In this document: piece by piece, positions 2,608 to 59,534 of the stretch | Layout: each line of letters opens with the position of its first letter | Position numbering within the stretch: the stretch's first letter is position 1 | Origin: Rhodobium gokarnense | GTDB lineage: Bacteria; Pseudomonadota; Alphaproteobacteria; Rhizobiales; Rhodobiaceae | NCBI RefSeq assembly: GCF_025961475.1 | Contig: NZ_JAOQNS010000009.1 | Coordinates: forward strand, 22,587 to 86,586 | Direction of reading: 5' to 3' | Length of the DNA: 64,000 nt | Made by a program: the position numbers and the translations under genes | Notes under the pieces: generated by a model | Told to the model about the DNA's origin: nothing | Seen by the model: the letters and a program-made list of their open reading frames with translations, nothing else | The model's database searches: none

Positions 2608-3546
2608 TCAGGCCCGCGGATGTGCCTTCTGGTAGATGTCGAGGAGCCTGTCGCTTTCGACCGCGGTGTAGATCTGGGTGGTCGACAGGCTGGCGTGGCC
2701 GAGCAGTTCCTGGATTGCCCGGAGGTCTCCGCCGGCGCTGAGAAGATGCGTGGCGAAGGAGTGGCGAAGGGCATGCGGCGTCGCGGTCTCGGCAAGGCCG
2801 AGCGCGCCGCGCAGCCGCTGGACGGCGATCTGGATGATGCGCGGCGACAGCGGCCCGCCGCGCGCACCGACAAAGAGCGGCCCGTCCTCGGCAAGCGCAT
2901 AGGGGCAGAGCTTCAGATAGGCCGCAACCGCCTCGCGCGTTGCGGCGAGCACCGGCACCAGGCGGGTCTTGCCGCCCTTGCCGGTCACCCGCAGCGACTC
3001 GACGGTATCGACCGGCGCCTCGGCGCGGGAAAGGCCGAGGGCTTCGGAGATGCGCAGGCCCGAGCCGTAGAGCAGCGACAGAACGGCCGCGTTGCGCACG
3101 GCGATCCAGGGCTCCTCGTCGAGCGCCTCGTCGGCATCGACCATGCGCCGCGCCGAGGCCGCCGCGATCGGCTTGGGCAACGTCTTGGGCTGTTTCGGCG
3201 TGCGGATCGCCTTCAGTGCCGCGGCGTTGGCAAGGCCCTTCCGCTCCAGGAAGGAAAAGAACGAGCGCACGCCGGCAAGCGCCCGGCCCATGGAGCGCGG
3301 ACCCGCCCCGGCGCGCCGCCGGTCGGCGAGGAAGCCGCGGAAATCGGCCGGTTTCAGGTCGGCAATGTCGGCAATGCCCGGCGCGCCGCCGAGATGCAGC
3401 GTCAGGAAGGAGAGGAGCTGGCGGACGTCGCGCTCATAGGCCTCGACCGTCTTTGCCGCAAGCCGCCGCGTGCCGGCGAGGTGGGCGAGCCAGGCGGTCA
3501 CCTCCGCAGCAAGGTCGGGTCTGGCGGTGATCAGCGGCGCTGCCAT
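2608..3546 (-). CDS. xerC: tyrosine site-specific recombinase XerC/XerD family
   Basis: Catalytic C-terminal motifs ...RHSFATHLL... and LLGHASLSTTQIYT; start taken at MAAPLIT (ATG 3546) rather than upstream in-frame ATG. Confidence 0.8.
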   Translation of the reverse strand: MAAPLITARPDLAAEVTAWLAHLAGTRRLAAKTVEAYERDVRQLLSFLTLHLGGAPGIADIADLKPADFRGFLADRRRAGAGPRSMGRALAGVRSFFSFLERKGLANAAALKAIRTPKQPKTLPKPIAAASARRMVDADEALDEEPWIAVRNAAVLSLLYGSGLRISEALGLSRAEAPVDTVESLRVTGKGGKTRLVPVLAATREAVAAYLKLCPYALAEDGPLFVGARGGPLSPRIIQIAVQRLRGALGLAETATPHALRHSFATHLLSAGGDLRAIQELLGHASLSTTQIYTAVESDRLLDIYQKAHPRA

Positions 3547-3841
3547 GTCTCCTTCCGCAGTTTTATACCAAGTATACAATCAAGACGGGCACGTTGGCGC
3601 GTCTACGCCTTTGCAGATCAAGAGGTTACACCAGCAACATTGACAATTCGTCACCAGTTTACTCCGTATTTAATTCCAAGGTGCAACAACGGCGCGGCCG
3701 ATCATGCCGGAAAATGCTGGATTTATCTAACGCCGTCGGCAAGGAGGCTTTATCCCGCCGGGCCGCCCGCTATCCTCCGGTGTCGTCCCGGCCGGCTGAG
3801 TCGCCGTCGGGCATCCAACGTCGCCGACTGCCGGAGCCTGC

Positions 3842-6076
3842 GTGGCCAACCAGACCGCCTCCCTGCCGGGCCTTGAGCCGGCCCCCGAAGAGCCTGCCGC
3901 CACCGTTCCGGTGCTGGTGCCGGTCGCCGTGGAGACGGCCTACAGCTACCGGGTCCCGGCGGGAATGCACCTTGGGCCCGGAACCGTCGTCCAGATACCG
4001 CTCGGCAACCGGCAGGTCGTCGGCGCGGTCTGGGAGCCCGGCATCTGGGAGGGCGGCGGCGCAAAGCCGGTCGATCCGTCGAAGCTGCGCGAGATCCTCC
4101 ACGTCTTCGACGTCCCGTCCATCGATGAGCGCATGCGCCGCTTCATCGACTGGGTCGCCCGCTGGACCATGGCGCCGCCCGGCATGGTGCTGCGCATGGT
4201 CCTCCGGGTGCCGGAGGCGCTGGAGCCCGAACCGCCGCTGAAAGGCGTCCGCCTTGCCGGGGCGCCGCCCGAGCGGATGACCAAGGCCCGCGCCCGCGTG
4301 CTCGACCTCTTTGAGGAAAACCCCTCCTGGTCGAAGACGGGCCTTGCGACCGCCGCCGGCGTCAGCCCCGGCGTCGTCGACGGCCTCATCGGCGCTGGCA
4401 CGCTCCAGATCGTGCCGCTGCCGGCGGCCCCGCCGGCGCCCATGCCGGAGGCCGACTGGAACCGCCGCGACCTGAGCCCTGCCCAGGACAAGGCGGCAGA
4501 GGAGATCACGGCGACCGTCGCCGAGCGGCGTTTCTCCGTCACGCTGCTGGACGGCGTTACCGGCGCCGGCAAGACCGAGGTGTATTTCGAGGCCGTGGCC
4601 GAAGCCCTGCGCCGCGGCCGCCAGGCGCTGGTGCTGTTGCCGGAGATCGCGCTCACCTCGGAATTCCTGCAGCGCTTCGAGGAGCGTTTCGGCTGCCGCC
4701 CCGGCGAGTGGCATTCGGATGTGCCGCCGAAGCAGCGGGTGCGGCTCTGGCGCGGCGTCATCGACGGTTCGGTCCGGGTCGTCGTCGGCGCCCGCTCCGC
4801 GCTGTTCCTGCCCTTTCCCGAACTCGGCCTCATCGTCGTCGACGAGGAGCACGACCCGGCCTACAAGCAGGACGACCGCGTCGCCTACCACGCCCGCGAC
4901 ATGGCGGTGGTGCGCGGCCACATCGCCGGCTTTCCGGTAATCCTGTCGTCGGCAACGCCCTCCATCGAGACAAGGCACAACGCCGATACCGGCCGCTACC
5001 GCCGCATCGAGCTGCCGGACCGGGCCTCCGGCGCCGCGCTGCCGGACATCCACGCCATCGACATGCGCCGGGGTGGCCCGGCCCGCGGCCGCTGGCTGGC
5101 CCCGGCGCTGACCCGCGCCGTCGGCGAGGCGCTCGCCCGCGGCGACCAGGCGCTCCTCTTCCTCAATCGCCGCGGCTATGCGCCGCTGACCCTCTGCCGC
5201 TCCTGCGGCCACCGCTTCGAATGCCCGGATTGCAGCGCCTGGCTGGTGGAGCACCGGTTCCGCAGCGTGCTCACCTGCCACCATTGCGGCTTTTCCATGC
5301 CGACGCCGGAGGCGTGCCCGTCCTGCGGCGACGTCGATTCGCTGACCGCCTGCGGGCCGGGCGTCGAACGCATCGCCGAGGAAGCCGCGGCCGACTTTCC
5401 CGATGCCCGCATCATCGTCTTGTCCTCCGACATGCCCGGCGGCACCAGGCGGCTGCGGGCCGAACTGAAGGCGATCGCGGGCGGCGAGGGCGACATCATC
5501 ATCGGCACCCAGCTCGTCGCCAAGGGTCACAACTTCCCCAAGCTCAAGGTCGTCGGCGTCGTCGATGCCGATCTCGGCCTTTCCACCGCAGACCCGCGCG
5601 CGGCGGAGCGCACCTTCCAGCTCATCTCCCAGGTGACGGGCCGCGCCGGGCGCCGCGACGGCGCCGGCGTCGGCTACTTGCAGACCTACATGCCGGACCA
5701 TCCGGTGATGCGGGCGCTGGTCTCCGGTGACCGCGAGAGCTTCTATGCGACCGAGCTGGAGGCGCGCGAGCGGTCCGCCATGCCGCCCTTTGCACGGCTG
5801 GCGAGCCTCCTCGTCACCGGCCCGGACCGGCCCCTGACGGAAGGCTTCGCCCGCGAGCTTGCCCGCGCCGCGCCCCACCAGGACGGTGTCCACGTGCTGG
5901 GTCCGGCCGACCCGCCGCTTGCCGTCATCCGCGGCCGCCACCGCCAGCGCCTCCTCGTCCATGCCGACCGGTCGGCGGACATCCAGGCCTATCTGCACCG
6001 CTGGCTGGCGGCCGGCCCGGTGCCGAAGAAGGGCGTCCGCCTCGCCATCGACATCGAGCCGCTCAGCTTCATGTGA
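3842..6076 (+). CDS. priA: primosomal protein N' (replication restart helicase PriA)
   Basis: 744 aa; Walker A GVTGAGKTEVY, DEEH box (VVDEEHD), Cys4 zinc-binding cluster CRSCGHRFECPDCSAWL...CHHCG; GTG start. Confidence 0.9.
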   Translation: MANQTASLPGLEPAPEEPAATVPVLVPVAVETAYSYRVPAGMHLGPGTVVQIPLGNRQVVGAVWEPGIWEGGGAKPVDPSKLREILHVFDVPSIDERMRRFIDWVARWTMAPPGMVLRMVLRVPEALEPEPPLKGVRLAGAPPERMTKARARVLDLFEENPSWSKTGLATAAGVSPGVVDGLIGAGTLQIVPLPAAPPAPMPEADWNRRDLSPAQDKAAEEITATVAERRFSVTLLDGVTGAGKTEVYFEAVAEALRRGRQALVLLPEIALTSEFLQRFEERFGCRPGEWHSDVPPKQRVRLWRGVIDGSVRVVVGARSALFLPFPELGLIVVDEEHDPAYKQDDRVAYHARDMAVVRGHIAGFPVILSSATPSIETRHNADTGRYRRIELPDRASGAALPDIHAIDMRRGGPARGRWLAPALTRAVGEALARGDQALLFLNRRGYAPLTLCRSCGHRFECPDCSAWLVEHRFRSVLTCHHCGFSMPTPEACPSCGDVDSLTACGPGVERIAEEAAADFPDARIIVLSSDMPGGTRRLRAELKAIAGGEGDIIIGTQLVAKGHNFPKLKVVGVVDADLGLSTADPRAAERTFQLISQVTGRAGRRDGAGVGYLQTYMPDHPVMRALVSGDRESFYATELEARERSAMPPFARLASLLVTGPDRPLTEGFARELARAAPHQDGVHVLGPADPPLAVIRGRHRQRLLVHADRSADIQAYLHRWLAAGPVPKKGVRLAIDIEPLSFM

Positions 6077-6177
6077 GCCCCTATCCCGGCAAGGCACTCT
6101 TTATATGGGAGGGGGCATTCGCGCCGGACCTGTGCCATGATCGTCGGAACGAAAACACCGACAGGGAGGACCGGGGA

Positions 6178-6672
6178 ATGGTCAGGACAGGGACGATCGT
6201 TGCCGCAATGGCCGGTGCCATACTTCTTGCCGGTCCCGGCGCCGGCCGTGCCGCCGGCACGGACATGCTGTTTTCCATCGGCGTCATGACCGGCGGCGAC
6301 GCCACACAGTACTGCAACTTCATGACGCCGGCCGATGCGGCCGCCTTCAGCTTCGACGACGAGGCGACCTGGCGCTTCGTCTTCGTCTCCGACTACCCGC
6401 AGCCCGAAGGGGAGAGCGAGGAAAAGGGTCCGCGCGCCCGCGCCGTCGTCAACGGCAGGCTGCAGACCTTCGTCTTCCGCGGCGAAAAGACCGACGGGGC
6501 GGGCATGCTGGTGCGCCGCTATCGCGGCCTTGACGACAGCGACCTGCGTATGGTCGCGCGCCTCAAGCCGGGAACGAAGGGGATGGAAAGCCAGAACTTC
6601 GAAGGCCGGATTGTGATCCGCCGCGGCGACTGGCGCGCCGGCGTCGCGGTCAAGGGCGATTGCGGCGTGTGA
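6178..6672 (+). CDS. secreted hypothetical protein
   Basis: Start at MVRTGTIVAAMAGAILLAGPGAGRAAG (signal peptide); upstream part of ORF-track frame is not coding-like. Confidence 0.5.
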   Translation: MVRTGTIVAAMAGAILLAGPGAGRAAGTDMLFSIGVMTGGDATQYCNFMTPADAAAFSFDDEATWRFVFVSDYPQPEGESEEKGPRARAVVNGRLQTFVFRGEKTDGAGMLVRRYRGLDDSDLRMVARLKPGTKGMESQNFEGRIVIRRGDWRAGVAVKGDCGV

Positions 6673-6932
6673 TGCAAACCGGTCGTTGCAGGCGGGCGGC
6701 CCGGCCACAGGTCGTATTTTTTCGCCCGAAAAGCGGGAACAATGCACCCCCTTTACGACCAAGGAATGAAATGGCGATGTTGCGTGCCCCTCACCCATGT
6801 GCTATGCGAAGCCCGGCTTTCGGGGCACAATCCTGCCAATCGTTTTTGCGGTCGGAAAAAGTCTTCTCTTGCAAGACTTTAGCGATGAGCTTTGGAAGTC
6901 GTCAGTGACGATCCGCGTGAGAGACAGAGCCC

Positions 6933-9022
<2,090 letters not shown>

Positions 9023-55640: not shown

Positions 55641-55882
55641 TTGGCCGCGCTTGCGCGCCCGGCACACCATTTGCCATTGCGGAAAAATACTTAACCGTCA
55701 TATTCATGGCCAATTGGCAGTTTTAAGTTGCCCCGCTAGACTTCGGCCGCCGCGCGCAAGGATCCCATCGGCGCGCGGGACTGTTGAAAGTCGATAACTT
55801 GAATGGCGCGTGTCAGTCAGGGGCTGATGACGACATCGCCACACCGGAATCTCCAAGCTGTTCCCGGAGGGAAACAACGAAC

Positions 55883-56359
55883 ATGATCTGGAAAGCGAAA
55901 AAACCCCTGATCGCAGCGATGGCCATCGCCGCAGCCATGTCCCTGTCGAGCGAGGCGTTCGCCCAGCACGCCCGCTGTGACGCCCGTGCCCGCGCGGCGG
56001 CAAACGACCGCGTCCCGACCGGCGGCAACGTCATCGGCGGCGCCGCGGCCGGTGCTGTCGGCGGTGCCATCATCGGCGGTATCATCGGCGGCGGCCGAGG
56101 CGCGGCCCGCGGGGCCGCCATCGGCGGCGGTGCCGGTGCGGTCGGCGGTGCCGGGCGCTCCTCGATCCAGTGGGACCGCGTCTATCGCCGTGTCTACAAT
56201 CGCTGCATGAACCGCGCGGCGGATGTCGGCTACCGTGGCAGCGGCCCGAAGCCGTGGTCCCCGGCCTGGTACGACTACTGCTCGTCCAAGTACCGGACCT
56301 TCAATCCCGATACCGGCTACTATTTCTACGCCCCGGGCAGGCAGCGCTTCTGCCGCTGA
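55883..56359 (+). CDS. BA14K family protein (with glycine-zipper region)
   Basis: Signal peptide, Gly-zipper GGAAAGAVGGAIIGGIIGGG, C-terminal WYDYCSSKYRTFNPDTGYYFYAPGRQRFC characteristic of Brucella BA14K-type proteins. Confidence 0.85.
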   Translation: MIWKAKKPLIAAMAIAAAMSLSSEAFAQHARCDARARAAANDRVPTGGNVIGGAAAGAVGGAIIGGIIGGGRGAARGAAIGGGAGAVGGAGRSSIQWDRVYRRVYNRCMNRAADVGYRGSGPKPWSPAWYDYCSSKYRTFNPDTGYYFYAPGRQRFCR

Positions 56360-56403: not shown

Positions 56404-56433
56404 AACGCGGGCCTCGGCGCCCGCGTTTTTTTG
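56404..56433 (+). terminator. Rho-independent terminator after BA14K gene
   Basis: aacgcgggc-ctcggc-gcccgcgtt hairpin plus T7. Confidence 0.75.
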
Positions 56434-56560
56434 TTGGCGTTTTTGCAATGCCGGCAAGTGTTGCCCGCTATGGGGTTGCGCTTCTTGCGCTCCCGTTTTT
56501 CCTTCACTCAGCGTCGCGACAGGAGACGATCATGTGATCCATGAGATTGATTACGAAATC

Positions 56561-56974
56561 TCAGCTTATTATTCCACTTCCGCGCATACCGTCTTTCGCG
56601 GCGGAAATGAAATTTTCTTCATCATCTTTCTTGAAACCACGGAACGCCGCGATGAACAACGCAATCAAAATAGCCGTTATTGAAATAATAGGGGAGACGA
56701 CTAGTGCAATCGCATATGTTGCGGGAACAGTCAAAATTGTTCCCCAAATTACATTGTGTGACATGTGAAATAAGGCAAATGACATCATGAATATTATTGC
56801 GAGAGCAACAATAACGGCAAGCCAACGTAGATAATAGCGTTGGTCGGCTTCTCGATTTAAATTCTCTTTTGCCTTTGCGCTGGCCTCTAGGAGCCGAAAT
56901 TCAATGTTAGTCTGTCTTTGAGGTTGCGCTTTTTCTGCTTCAGGCTGCGCATCAATTGGCGGTACATCAATCAT
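56561..56974 (-). CDS. hypothetical membrane protein (2-3 predicted TM helices), candidate toxin partner of Panacea-domain protein
   Basis: 137 aa from MIDVPPIDAQ (ATG overlaps upstream stop as ATGA); hydrophilic N-terminal 50 aa then LRWLAVIVALAIIFMMSFALF and IWGTILTVPATYAIALVVSPIISITAILIALFIAAF hydrophobic segments; no family recognised. Confidence 0.55.
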   Translation of the reverse strand: MIDVPPIDAQPEAEKAQPQRQTNIEFRLLEASAKAKENLNREADQRYYLRWLAVIVALAIIFMMSFALFHMSHNVIWGTILTVPATYAIALVVSPIISITAILIALFIAAFRGFKKDDEENFISAAKDGMRGSGIIS

Positions 56975-57435
56975 TTCTGGGCATTCGCCTGCCGACGCTT
57001 GACTATGTAGTGGGATTGAATCAATTCGTTGGGGATCGGTGCATACCACCCGCCGAGACGGGTCGCAGTTTCCCACGGGCCACCTGGTTCATGGGTAATT
57101 TCGGATAGCCTAAAGGGCGTCATTGTGCCATAAATGTTATAGATCTGTTCTAAAAGGTTCTCCGTCGTTGGATCGTCAATAGTATCGGGATAATTAGAAT
57201 CTGGTTTAAAAGGTGTGACACCTTGTGGCCGAAAAGAATTGTAAACGTCCGGAATTACAGGGCCGTATTGCCATGCTTCAATGCGGTTTGGAAATAACGG
57301 GGCATTGTTGATTTCTAGGTTCCAGCCATGTGCGATATAGGTGAGCTTTAGCAGCGCCATTATGGATGGACATTGCCCATCACGCTTGGCGCGGCTCAAG
57401 AACCAATTGGCAATCTGCCGTGCATCGTATTGCAT
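56971..57435 (-). CDS. Panacea (DUF4065) domain protein, candidate PanA-type antitoxin
   Basis: IANWFLSRAKRDG...SIMALLKLTYIAHGWNLEINNAPLFPNRIEAWQYGPVIPDVYNSF matches the KLqKLlY...AW.yGPV.p.vY core of DUF4065/Panacea (SocA/GepA-like); ATG 57435 with GGGGTGA 6 nt upstream (alternative GTG 57444). Confidence 0.7.
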   Translation of the reverse strand: MQYDARQIANWFLSRAKRDGQCPSIMALLKLTYIAHGWNLEINNAPLFPNRIEAWQYGPVIPDVYNSFRPQGVTPFKPDSNYPDTIDDPTTENLLEQIYNIYGTMTPFRLSEITHEPGGPWETATRLGGWYAPIPNELIQSHYIVKRRQANAQK

Positions 57436-57459
57436 CTTATTCACCCCGCTAGCTCACTT

Positions 57460-57487
57460 AATATAATCAATTTCGTTGAGATTTCAA
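57460..57487 (-). promoter_or_regulatory. sigma70-like promoter of islet operon (TTGAAA-N16-TATATT) with upstream palindrome GATTCGAATC
   Basis: On minus strand: TTGAAA (57482-57487) - 16 nt - TATATT (57460-57465), about 25 nt upstream of ATG; perfect 10-bp palindrome at 57505-57514 just upstream of -35. Confidence 0.55.
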
Positions 57488-57774
57488 TGACTTGCTATCT
57501 AATTGATTCGAATCGTTTTTTTGCTGCGCCGCAAGTGATCCCGTCAGTTTTTCCGACCAGCGCTGCATTTGCGTTTTTTGAGCCGGGCAAATACCGCATG
57601 TGCCGTTTGCAGTGGTTCCGCTTTTCCTCAGAAGTGGACTATCGCTAGGTTGTAGTACGTAAGCGGCAGCGAAAAAGAATGAATTCAAAAGCCCTCCGGG
57701 TTGCCGAGGCAAGCCGGTCTCGATGCGGTGGGGCAGACGAAAGAGTCGTTCGCGCCCCGCACCGGCGAGGATGC

Positions 57775-58281
57775 TTACCCCGCCGCCAGGTGCTTGAATG
57801 CCGCGACGACCTGGACATAGACGTCGCGCTTGAACGGCACGATCAGGTCCGGCAGGCGCTCCAGGCGCTCCCAGCGCCAGGCGCTGAATTCCGGCTTGTG
57901 GTCGTCGCCCGGATTGTCGACGTCGATCTCCGATTCCGGGCCGGTGAAGCGCATGGCGAACCATTTCTGCTTCTGGCCCCGGTAGCGGCCCTTCCAGGCA
58001 ATGCCGATCATCTCGTCCGGCAGGTCATAGGTAAGCCAGTCCCCGGTCTCGCCGATGATCTCGGCCGAGCGCACGCTGGTCTCCTCGAAGAGCTCGCGCT
58101 TGGCTGCCTCGGCCGGGTCCTCGTTCTTGTCGATGCCGCCTTGCGGGAACTGCCACCAGTAGCCGGCCCCCTCCGCATCGTCCGGCTCGAAGCGGCGCTC
58201 GCCGGCCCACACCAGGCCGTCGTCGTTGAACAAGACGACGCCGACGCAGGGGCGGTAGGGAAGATCGTCCTTGGCGACCAT
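57775..58281 (-). CDS. rppH: RNA pyrophosphohydrolase (Nudix)
   Basis: Start [19 protein letters not shown]; Nudix box [23 protein letters not shown]; RppH-type C-terminal region. Confidence 0.88.
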
Positions 58282-58349
58282 CGGATGGGACCTCGCTGAT
58301 TTTCTGCCGGCCTCGCGCGGGGCCGCGGGCGGGGGAGAAGAAAAGGCCG

Positions 58350-59534
58350 TCAGCGCTGGCGCCGGCGCACCACTGCGGAGATCGGTACCAGAACCACCCC
58401 CCGGCTTTCCAGCGATTTCGCCCATTCGGAGATGCGCTCCACCGTCACCGGCAGCGCCGAGGCGACGCCGATGCCGGTGCCGTTGGTCCGCGCGATGGTC
58501 TCAAGCTCCAGGAGCCGGGTGTCGATATCGGCAGCCGCCGGCGAGGCGTCGATCACGACCTCGCTCTTGGCGTAGGGCGTGCCGGTGGCGTGGGCGATGC
58601 TCTGGGACAGGCTGCGCGGCGAGGTGCCGTCGTCGAGATACATCAGGCCGCGCCGGCCGATGTCCTCCATGAAGAAGGCGAGCGCCTTGGGATCGGCGGT
58701 GAAGCGCGCGCCCATATAGTTGACGACGCCCACATAGTTGGTCAGCCGCGACAGCACCCAGCGCAGCCGGGCAAGGTTCTCCGAGGGCGCGAGCGAGGTC
58801 AGCAGCGTGTGCGGGCCGGGGTCGTTATCCGGGAAGTCGAACGGCTCCAGCGGCACCTGCAAGAGAAGCTCGTGGCCACCCGTGCGGGCCTTCTGCATCC
58901 ACCTGTCGAGGCTGCCGCCATAGGGCGCAAAGGCGAGCGTCGTCTCCTTCGGCAGCTTGCGGAGCGCTTCCTGGGTGCCGGTCTGGGACAGCCCGAGGTC
59001 GCCGACGATGATGGCGATCTGCGGCGCGTTCTTCAGGTTCGGCGAAATCGGTGCGGAGTAGAGGTCGAACGGCCGGCTGCCGTCGACCGAGCGCCGCGGC
59101 AGCGGGCCGTTGCGGCCCTGCTCCATGAGTTTGGGGATCGGCTGGGTGGAGAGCGCGCCGTCCGGCCCGACCTCGGGCTCCACGGCGGCGATGTCCTCGC
59201 CCGGCGGCTTGATCGCGGTGATCACCGAGCCGTCGCCGAGGGTCGCGGCATCGCCCGCGTCGTCCGTGCCCGCCTCGCCGGGGGCAGGCGCCTCCTTGGG
59301 GATGTCGACCACATCGACGGTGGCGGACGGCGATTTGTTGAGGGTCGGCGCGATGTCGACGGTCGCCATCGGCTCGCCGCCATGGGGATCGTCGACCAGC
59401 GACAGCCAGGCGGTGACCGTCGAGCCGACGATCAGAAACAGGGCGAAGGCGAGAAGACCGAACGGAAAGCGGCGCTTCTTGCGGTCCGCCTTGGGTTTTC
59501 CGCCAAGGGGTGCGGTCAGGTTGTCCGCTGCCAT
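58350..59534 (-). CDS. divergent polysaccharide deacetylase family protein (YibQ-like)
   Basis: N-terminal TM anchor then [13 protein letters not shown]...[10 protein letters not shown]...[11 protein letters not shown] typical of PF04748. Confidence 0.8.

Follow-up and report, generated by a model that had tools for sequence, protein, structure and literature searches.

A Panacea-linked two-helix membrane protein of Rhodobium gokarnense as a candidate toxin of the PanA-PanT type

In a 64,000-nucleotide stretch of the Rhodobium gokarnense genome (contig NZ_JAOQNS010000009.1, positions 22,587 to 86,586; hereafter, the window), a short open reading frame (ORF) of the minus strand follows directly on a gene for a Panacea-domain protein, PanA, and the question raised by this locus is what kind of protein the short ORF encodes. 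The gene is real, it belongs to a protein family, and it is linked to PanA in all loci inspected. The explanation that we favor, and hold to be probable, is that the ORF specifies PanT, the toxin of a horizontally acquired PanA-PanT toxin-antitoxin module, and that this toxin is a membrane-depolarizing hairpin of the inner membrane. The two genes and their junction were located as follows.

56561..56974, minus strand: coding sequence (CDS) of the candidate PanT-type membrane toxin, 137 amino acids plus stop, from the ORF list and its translation
56971..57435, minus strand: CDS of PanA, a single-domain Panacea/DUF4065 antitoxin (PF13274), 154 amino acids from the ATG at 57435
56971..56974, minus strand: ATGA start/stop overlap (PanA-toxin translational coupling), read from the sequence

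The ORF at 56561-56974 and the 137-residue translation quoted in a preliminary description of this DNA were both reproduced from the sequence. The protein (translation of 56561..56974, minus strand; MIDVPPIDAQ...FRGFKKDDEENFISAAKDGMRGSGIIS) matches, at 100% identity, a "hypothetical/membrane protein" of Rhodobium gokarnense. A word-indexed search returned 22 close homologues of 41 to 61% identity, all of 133 to 147 amino acids except one 110-amino-acid fragment, and all 22 aligned from one common N terminus. When a HMMER profile was searched against 1.84 billion cluster representatives, at least 280 clusters (50% identity) were found at an E value of ≤ 1e-3, with 148 of the 280 at ≤ 1e-10; most of these relatives are 130 to 170 amino acids long. 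The existence of this protein family rules out a chance ORF. Two flavors of the family could be distinguished, one with the sequence AAFRGFKDGD, which includes the window toxin, and one with GAFRRFKDDD and a longer coiled N-terminal helix. Among members with a named source organism, the family is mostly alphaproteobacterial, and some copies lie in prophages.

The ATG at 56974 is the supported start, since the homologues align from it and 97% of 145 members have retained P5. An ORF lengthened to a GTG at 57076 was rejected: the homologues start at the ATG, and the extension falls within the PanA coding region. The preference of the preliminary description for the ATG over this GTG was therefore borne out by the homologue N termini, by the conservation of P5, and by the start-stop overlaps that recur across loci.

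The upstream gene passed the Pfam cut-off for PF13274 (SocA_Panacea; E value of 5e-17, 63.3 bits against a cut-off of 25.7 bits) and also matched phrog_1281 in PHROGs (E value of 4e-38). The toxin ATG (56974-56972) and the PanA TGA (56973-56971) share bases as ATGA. The PanA ATG at 57435 is preceded by a Shine-Dalgarno-like GGGG run, and an alternative PanA start is a GTG at 57444.

An intact PanA gene was found directly upstream of the toxin gene, on the same strand, in 16 of the 16 distinct loci for which upstream DNA was available (the window, L001, L003, L004, L006, L007, L008, L010, L012, L015, L017, L021, and L023-L026). These were drawn from Sulfitobacter, Sphingomonadales EhC05, Sphingopyxis, Sphingobium, and Parasphingopyxis genomes or metagenome-assembled genomes (MAGs), a further Sphingomonadales MAG, a Rhodobacteraceae MAG, metagenome contigs, the Paracoccus phage vB_PsuS_Psul1, and three IMG/VR prophage contigs. 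Toxin identities across the PanA-linked loci ranged from 49% down to about 31%, and the neighborhoods were mutually unrelated, comprising a SIR2-kinase gene, an IS1595 transposase, umuDC, an SMC-like ATPase, housekeeping genes, a phage lysogeny module, and a lysis cassette. The PanA/toxin junction was an overlap of 4, 8, or 14 nucleotides or a 1-nucleotide gap, with a 33-nucleotide gap in L021. The Panacea partner named in the preliminary description is thus confirmed both by its domain and by a pairing that is conserved across loci.

At one of these loci (L026, ENA contig NODE_16), an intact PanA at 3544-3999, 58% identical to the window PanA, is uncalled in the source gene table, and surveys based on gene tables would therefore wrongly score its toxin as an orphan. 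Two plasmid loci were observed besides. On Azospirillum argentinense plasmid p7 (L020, 1444-2549), a PanA gene lies downstream of a lysozyme gene and is followed by about 560 nucleotides without an annotated gene; the next gene is on the opposite strand, and an uncalled PanA partner may lie between. On a Shewanella khirikhana plasmid (L019, 1498-2378), PanA is followed by an unrelated protein of 132 amino acids that consists of a charged head and a pair of transmembrane (TM) helices. This protein scored 9 bits against the hidden Markov model of the family, the pair adjoins TnsA and transposase genes, and it looks like another PanA-linked membrane-toxin lineage. On plasmids of E. coli and Enterobacter, the partners of PanA are soluble proteins, different from the family. 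PanA is known to pair with several unrelated small proteins (PMC8832971, PMC10440598). A tblastn search with the window toxin found nothing in plasmids and nothing meaningful in phages, and the close subfamily gave no match in an IMG/VR scan; with the distant member P0198, tblastn against phages returned Paracoccus phage Psul1 as the sole match.

The window PanA also matched the NCBIfam model NF047745 (SocA_antitoxin) over its full length, with an E value of 2e-26 and 92.9 bits. Caulobacter, where SocAB (cluster T10) was described, is likewise an alphaproteobacterial host with an antitoxin of the Panacea/SocA family, and the pair might accordingly be read as a type VI system in which PanA, instead of binding its partner stably, serves as a proteolytic adaptor and hands the membrane protein over to a protease. 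We consider this very unlikely. The PanA score is well under the 190-bit equivalog cut-off of the SocA model, the partner is not SocB-like, and T10 is a separate cluster. SocB is a soluble protein and an inhibitor of DNA replication, whereas the window partner is a two-helix membrane protein that matched no NCBIfam family. Published PanAT pairs, moreover, form complexes, which was read as direct neutralization (PMC8832971), and point mutations of PanA at the predicted interface abolish the neutralization of PanT D11 (PMC10440598).

The anatomy of the putative toxin was then deduced from hydropathy, from an AlphaFold2 model (29 aligned sequences; mean predicted local distance difference test score [pLDDT] of 77), and from column conservation in a family alignment of 145 members (A3). 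Kyte-Doolittle peaks were found at residues ~51-72 and 86-111. The model comprised a disordered segment (residues 1-15), a helix (residues 16-77) that runs continuously into TM1, a loop, a second helix (residues 85-111), and a third (residues 117-133). Together they give the following parts.

56951..56965, minus strand: N-terminal V-P-P-I-D motif, residues 4-8 (P5 in 97% and D8 in 65% of 145 members)
56825..56929, minus strand: predicted cytoplasmic helix before TM1, residues 16-50 (AlphaFold2; pLDDT of 88-93 over residues 21-50)
56759..56824, minus strand: TM helix 1, residues 51-72 (hydropathy, AlphaFold2, and alignment), its outer end bearing H70 and H73
56720..56758, minus strand: short variable loop, residues 73-85, predicted to be periplasmic; its length and sequence vary in the family
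56642..56719, minus strand: TM helix 2, residues 86-111 (hydropathy and AlphaFold2), ending in A110-F111
56621..56641, minus strand: membrane-adjacent, predicted cytoplasmic motif R112-G-F-K-K-D-D118 (R112 in 92% and D118 in 86% of 145 members)
56576..56626, minus strand: predicted C-terminal helix, residues 117-133, weakly conserved (AlphaFold2; pLDDT of 63-73)

Across the 145 members, the segment preceding TM1 has a mean of 4.4 Lys plus Arg residues, the loop 0.9, and the segment following TM2 3.1; by the positive-inside rule, both termini are therefore predicted to be cytoplasmic, and the predicted topology is one of two TM helices with N-in/C-in orientation. The preliminary description had reported a hydrophilic N terminus of about 50 residues, hydrophobic segments, and a charged tail, all of which are present, the charged tail (the FRGFKKDDEE stretch) corresponding to the R112-D118 motif with its family variants AAFRGFKDGD and GAFRRFKDDD. 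It had also proposed two to three TM helices. Hydropathy and the AlphaFold2 model agree on two, whereas the third had to be discarded: the VIWGTILTV stretch is in the most variable region of the alignment, a loop, and many homologues are three residues shorter there and hydrophilic.

The best-conserved positions were P5, E42, Q45, R46, R50, P95, S98, T100, A110, F111, R112, and D118, and they fall into three motif groups. The first is the N-terminal VPxxD. The second, E42-x-x-Q45-R46-x-x-x-R50, closes the pre-TM1 helix beside the membrane (Q45 in 94%, R46 in 88%, and R50 in 79% of members). The third, P-x-x-S-x-T...AFR-x-F-K-D-x-D, begins within TM2, in which P95 is conserved in 100% and F111 in 99% of members, with S98, T100, and A110 also conserved; a stretch rich in Ser and Thr accompanies the proline in TM2. 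The strongest conservation is outside the lipid-facing core, a pattern that fits a surface for protein binding and gating better than a passive anchor.

Next, we considered how this protein compares with the published PanAT systems. The study that named the Panacea domain (Kurata 2022) validated nine PanA-PanT pairs, and three of the toxins had predicted TM segments (PMC8832971). Of the membrane PanTs, T3 (E. coli) and T12 (Bartonella apis) have a charged N-terminal head and C-terminal TM helices; they stopped transcription, translation, and replication together, caused depolarization as seen with DiSC3(5), with HokB as the depolarizing control, and allowed SYTOX Green entry, and each was neutralized by its cognate PanA (PMC8832971). 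PanAT pairs were found to form complexes, which was read as direct, type II-style neutralization (PMC8832971). In later work (Ernits 2023), the Bartonella toxin was renamed PanT D11 (NetFlax; equal to T12), a model of PanT D11:PanA had the Panacea domain touching the N-terminal unstructured region and the short pre-TM helix, and the PanA substitutions Y56A and H120E abolished neutralization of PanT D11 (PMC10440598).

The window pair resembles T12/D11 (WP_077993242.1, with PanA WP_077993240.1, of Bartonella apis/choladocola) in having a single-domain PanA upstream with a small overlap or gap and a toxin of about 110 to 160 amino acids, in which a charged or disordered N terminus is followed by a helix that continues into TM1 and, past a short loop, by another helix. 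It resembles T3 (E. coli STEC O31 WP_000019185.1, with PanA WP_000287252.1), by the published description, in its charged N terminus and C-terminal TM helices, and Rhodobacteraceae, Sphingomonas, and Marinicaulis entries of T3 have overlaps similar to those of the loci described here. The architecture, gene order, and putative contact site of the window toxin fit closely with the validated membrane PanTs, and the architecture agrees with the resemblance to small membrane-active toxins that the preliminary description had noted. Within its soluble parts, conservation is highest in exactly the N-terminal motif and the membrane-adjacent helix. Unlike some T3 members, which match S_4TM or coiled-coil superfamilies, neither the window toxin nor the scanned family members had such matches.

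The published T12 and T3 clusters are large and heterogeneous. Their alphaproteobacterial entries include Thalassospira, Altererythrobacter, Ochrobactrum, and Bartonella for T12 and Rhodobacter, Aquimixticola, Sphingomonas, and Marinicaulis for T3, and it is plausible that relatives of the window toxin are already inside one or the other. The direct comparison with T12 used one subgroup, that of Pasteurellaceae and Aggregatibacter phage S1249 (D11S_2262; an alignment of 18 sequences). The hhalign probability was 9.7-10.6% with the close alignment of the window family (A1) and 4.7% with the broad one (A3), and HMMER scores were 6 to 11 bits. The weak alignment was collinear over about 67 columns (AK..N..R.DQ.F before TM1, L.HM at the end of TM1, and V.(A/P)I.S in helix 2). 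The AlphaFold2 model of the S1249 member (mean pLDDT of 63) had a disordered N terminus, a long helix at residues 25-78, a loop, and a helix at residues 88-118, elements that follow one another as in the window toxin. Unlike this Pasteurellaceae subgroup, the window family has a strongly hydrophobic TM2, an invariant proline, and the AFRxFKDxD motif.

The suggestion in the preliminary description that the protein may represent a new toxin family matching nothing did not find support in that form. Toxins of like architecture, T3 and T12, have been published and validated, so that the kind is already known (PMC8832971, PMC10440598), and the family itself extends to the 280 or more clusters described above. 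Its statement that the protein has no recognizable domain, by comparison, still stands after searches of Pfam, NCBIfam, PHROGs, PADLOC, the PDB, and BFVD. In Pfam, NCBIfam, PHROGs, and PADLOC, no match of the window toxin or of its 145 relatives reached a curated threshold. The matches below the Pfam threshold were generic TM hairpins (among others, DUF2207_C, E1-E2_ATPase, DUF805, and Phage_holin_3_6). Neither PDB sequences, searched with a profile, nor PDB and BFVD folds, searched with Foldseek, gave a match at an E value of ≤ 0.001, the noise-level matches being VAMP2, G-protein-coupled receptor fusion constructs, and the mitochondrial calcium uniporter (MCU). SLATT_1 scored 10 bits against the window toxin (E value of 0.61; NCBIfam cut-off of 41 bits), and defense-system membrane effectors such as RosmerTA RmrT, SLATT, and S_4TM were not among the 25 Pfam families that the 145 members matched most frequently.

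In the mechanism that we propose, PanA would be translated first and the toxin second, from one coupled transcript. PanA would then bind the cytoplasmic N-terminal motif of the toxin together with its membrane-adjacent helix and hold the toxin inactive. Were PanA lost or displaced, the free hairpin could oligomerize in the inner membrane, and the oligomer would dissipate the membrane potential or form pores, whereupon growth would stop, as it does with the published membrane PanTs. The role of the module is likely to be abortive infection or mobile-element addiction.

Several points weigh against this explanation. The contact of PanA with the VPxxD motif and the pre-TM helix is placed by analogy with PanT D11:PanA. 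The candidate promoter upstream of PanA came from a consensus scan, as a pattern match. No significant homology to the Pasteurellaceae T12 subgroup, one subgroup of a heterogeneous cluster, was found with hhalign or HMMER. PanA is better conserved than its partner, at 53 to 67% identity to the window PanA in related loci compared with 31 to 49% for the membrane protein, which is unusual for an antitoxin and could point to a function beyond neutralization. In toxin-antitoxin pairs, the reverse pattern, with the antitoxin less conserved, is often assumed. Finally, several predicted PanTs, including a predicted membrane PanT of C. difficile, were non-toxic in E. coli, and the pairs tested include no member of the window toxin family (PMC8832971).

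The non-toxic PanTs also lend some weight to a reading in which the membrane protein is harmless and serves as an anchor, receptor, or accessory subunit of PanA, or is a superinfection-exclusion, holin, or antiholin-like phage protein. The toxicity of the window family and its depolarizing mechanism are suggested by analogy with T3 and T12, 9 of the 145 relatives had sub-threshold matches to Phage_holin_3_6 (best E value of 4e-4), and in one prophage the copy comes directly after a lysozyme gene. These holin matches, however, are below the Pfam threshold and stand among other generic TM-hairpin matches. The window toxin itself had no Phage_holin_3_6 match, and no endolysin is encoded near the window copy. 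The gene is always beside PanA and mostly not beside an endolysin, the lysozyme-bearing prophage has small lysis-cassette genes of its own, and the architecture agrees with that of validated toxins. We therefore judge a non-toxic membrane protein to be unlikely.

The genomic setting of the pair bears on how the proposed toxin module came to be in the window. The pair was found alone in an islet of low GC content.

56450..57700, no strand: low-GC islet holding only the PanA-toxin pair, from a GC scan

Within this islet of about 1.2 kb, the GC fraction was 0.39-0.52, compared with 0.65-0.70 in the flanks; that of the module was 0.459, against 0.651 and 0.676 on either side. In eight of the nine other loci with two readable flanks, the GC content of the module was likewise under that of both flanks, by about 2 to 18 points. 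Given this lower GC content across loci and the unrelated neighborhoods, the PanA-toxin pair bears the marks of a self-contained mobile two-gene module. The vicinity of the islet contained no Rfam family and no tRNA. A gapped similarity of about 29 nucleotides (TTTTTGC..TGC.C.GCAAGTG.T.CCCG) was observed between the islet edges at 56440-56468 and 57518-57544; its score of 23, against a shuffle mean of 17.4 (standard deviation of 2.0, maximum of 25), is too weak for an insertion scar.

Some copies of the module occupy positions that suggest a part in phage defense. In Paracoccus phage vB_PsuS_Psul1 (L017, 987-3405), PanA (p14) and the family member (p13) are on the strand of a CI-like repressor and downstream of it, separated from it by two small genes of no known function. 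Three IMG/VR prophage contigs carry copies, and the one located directly after a phage lysozyme is that whose lysis cassette holds small genes of its own. In Sulfitobacter sp. 1A05707 (L001), an 807-amino-acid fusion of SIR2_2 and a protein kinase is encoded at 5182-7605, about 0.8 kb from the pair, and looks like a defense-island neighbor. These prophage and defense-island locations, together with the unusually conserved PanA, make a role in abortive infection plausible, and from them we infer that the module may act in defense.

The layout of the Psul1 copy, with a cytoplasmic partner and a prophage site by a repressor, recalls the lambda order cI-rexA-rexB. RexB, HokB, TisB, and GhoT are small inner-membrane proteins whose activity collapses the membrane potential. 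RexB has four TM helices, and Hok, TisB, and GhoT are controlled by an RNA or an RNase antitoxin rather than by a protein that binds them. Searches of Pfam, NCBIfam, the PDB, and BFVD showed no similarity, in sequence or in fold, between the window toxin and Rex, Hok, TisB, or GhoT.

By analogy with lambda, where RexA activates the RexB channel, PanA might be a sensor of phage that releases the membrane effector, and the pair a switch for abortive infection. This overlaps the favored explanation, the chief difference being the trigger for release, and we regard it as possible though somewhat improbable. The copies in the Psul1 lysogeny module, in the three prophage contigs, and beside the SIR2-kinase gene would suit such a switch, as would the S1249 T12 pair, which sits near a phage repressor and an Abi gene, and the greater conservation of PanA than of the toxin. 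Against it, neither gene of the pair matched a PADLOC defense model (for the window toxin, there were no matches at an E value of ≤ 1), the window copy stands alone in its islet, without phage genes nearby, and no phage-challenge data for pairs of PanA and a membrane PanT were found in the PanAT publications compared. More doubtful still is the stronger proposal that the window family is a distinct, undescribed family of PanA-controlled two-helix effectors apart from T3 and T12, forming an abortive-infection switch of prophages and islands in which PanA would sense the phage and the hairpin would act as depolarizing executioner, a functional analogue of RexAB. Its markers would be VPxxD, E-x-x-QR-x-x-x-R, the invariant TM2 proline, and AFRxFKDxD.

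If the membrane-toxin assignment that we favor is confirmed, a widespread and well-delimited family joins the membrane toxins neutralized by Panacea, and its conserved motifs can be mutated as a test of how PanA recognizes very different toxins. A family model would then be justified, as there is none in Pfam, NCBIfam, PADLOC, or PHROGs and the genes are now annotated as "hypothetical." The current picture of PanAT systems would be unchanged, and the main value lies in a clean family definition with testable motifs.

The remaining features around the pair are a candidate promoter and the two genes that flank the islet.

57460..57487, minus strand: sigma-70-like promoter candidate 5' of PanA (TTGAAA, 16-nucleotide spacer, TATATT; 10/12 matches)
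57775-58425, minus strand: NUDIX (RppH-like) gene flanking the islet, from Pfam
55784-56359, plus strand: BA14K-like gene flanking the islet (Pfam PF07886, 26.1 bits against a 26.0-bit cut-off)

The product of the BA14K-like gene is a small glycine-rich protein with the BA14K-like domain at its C terminus and a weak Gly-zipper match. About 125 nucleotides past the toxin stop, a GC-rich hairpin followed by seven T residues was observed at 56407-56433 on the plus strand (folding energy of -20.7 kcal/mol). It was missed by the consensus scan, and transcription of the convergent BA14K-like gene probably ends at it as an intrinsic terminator.

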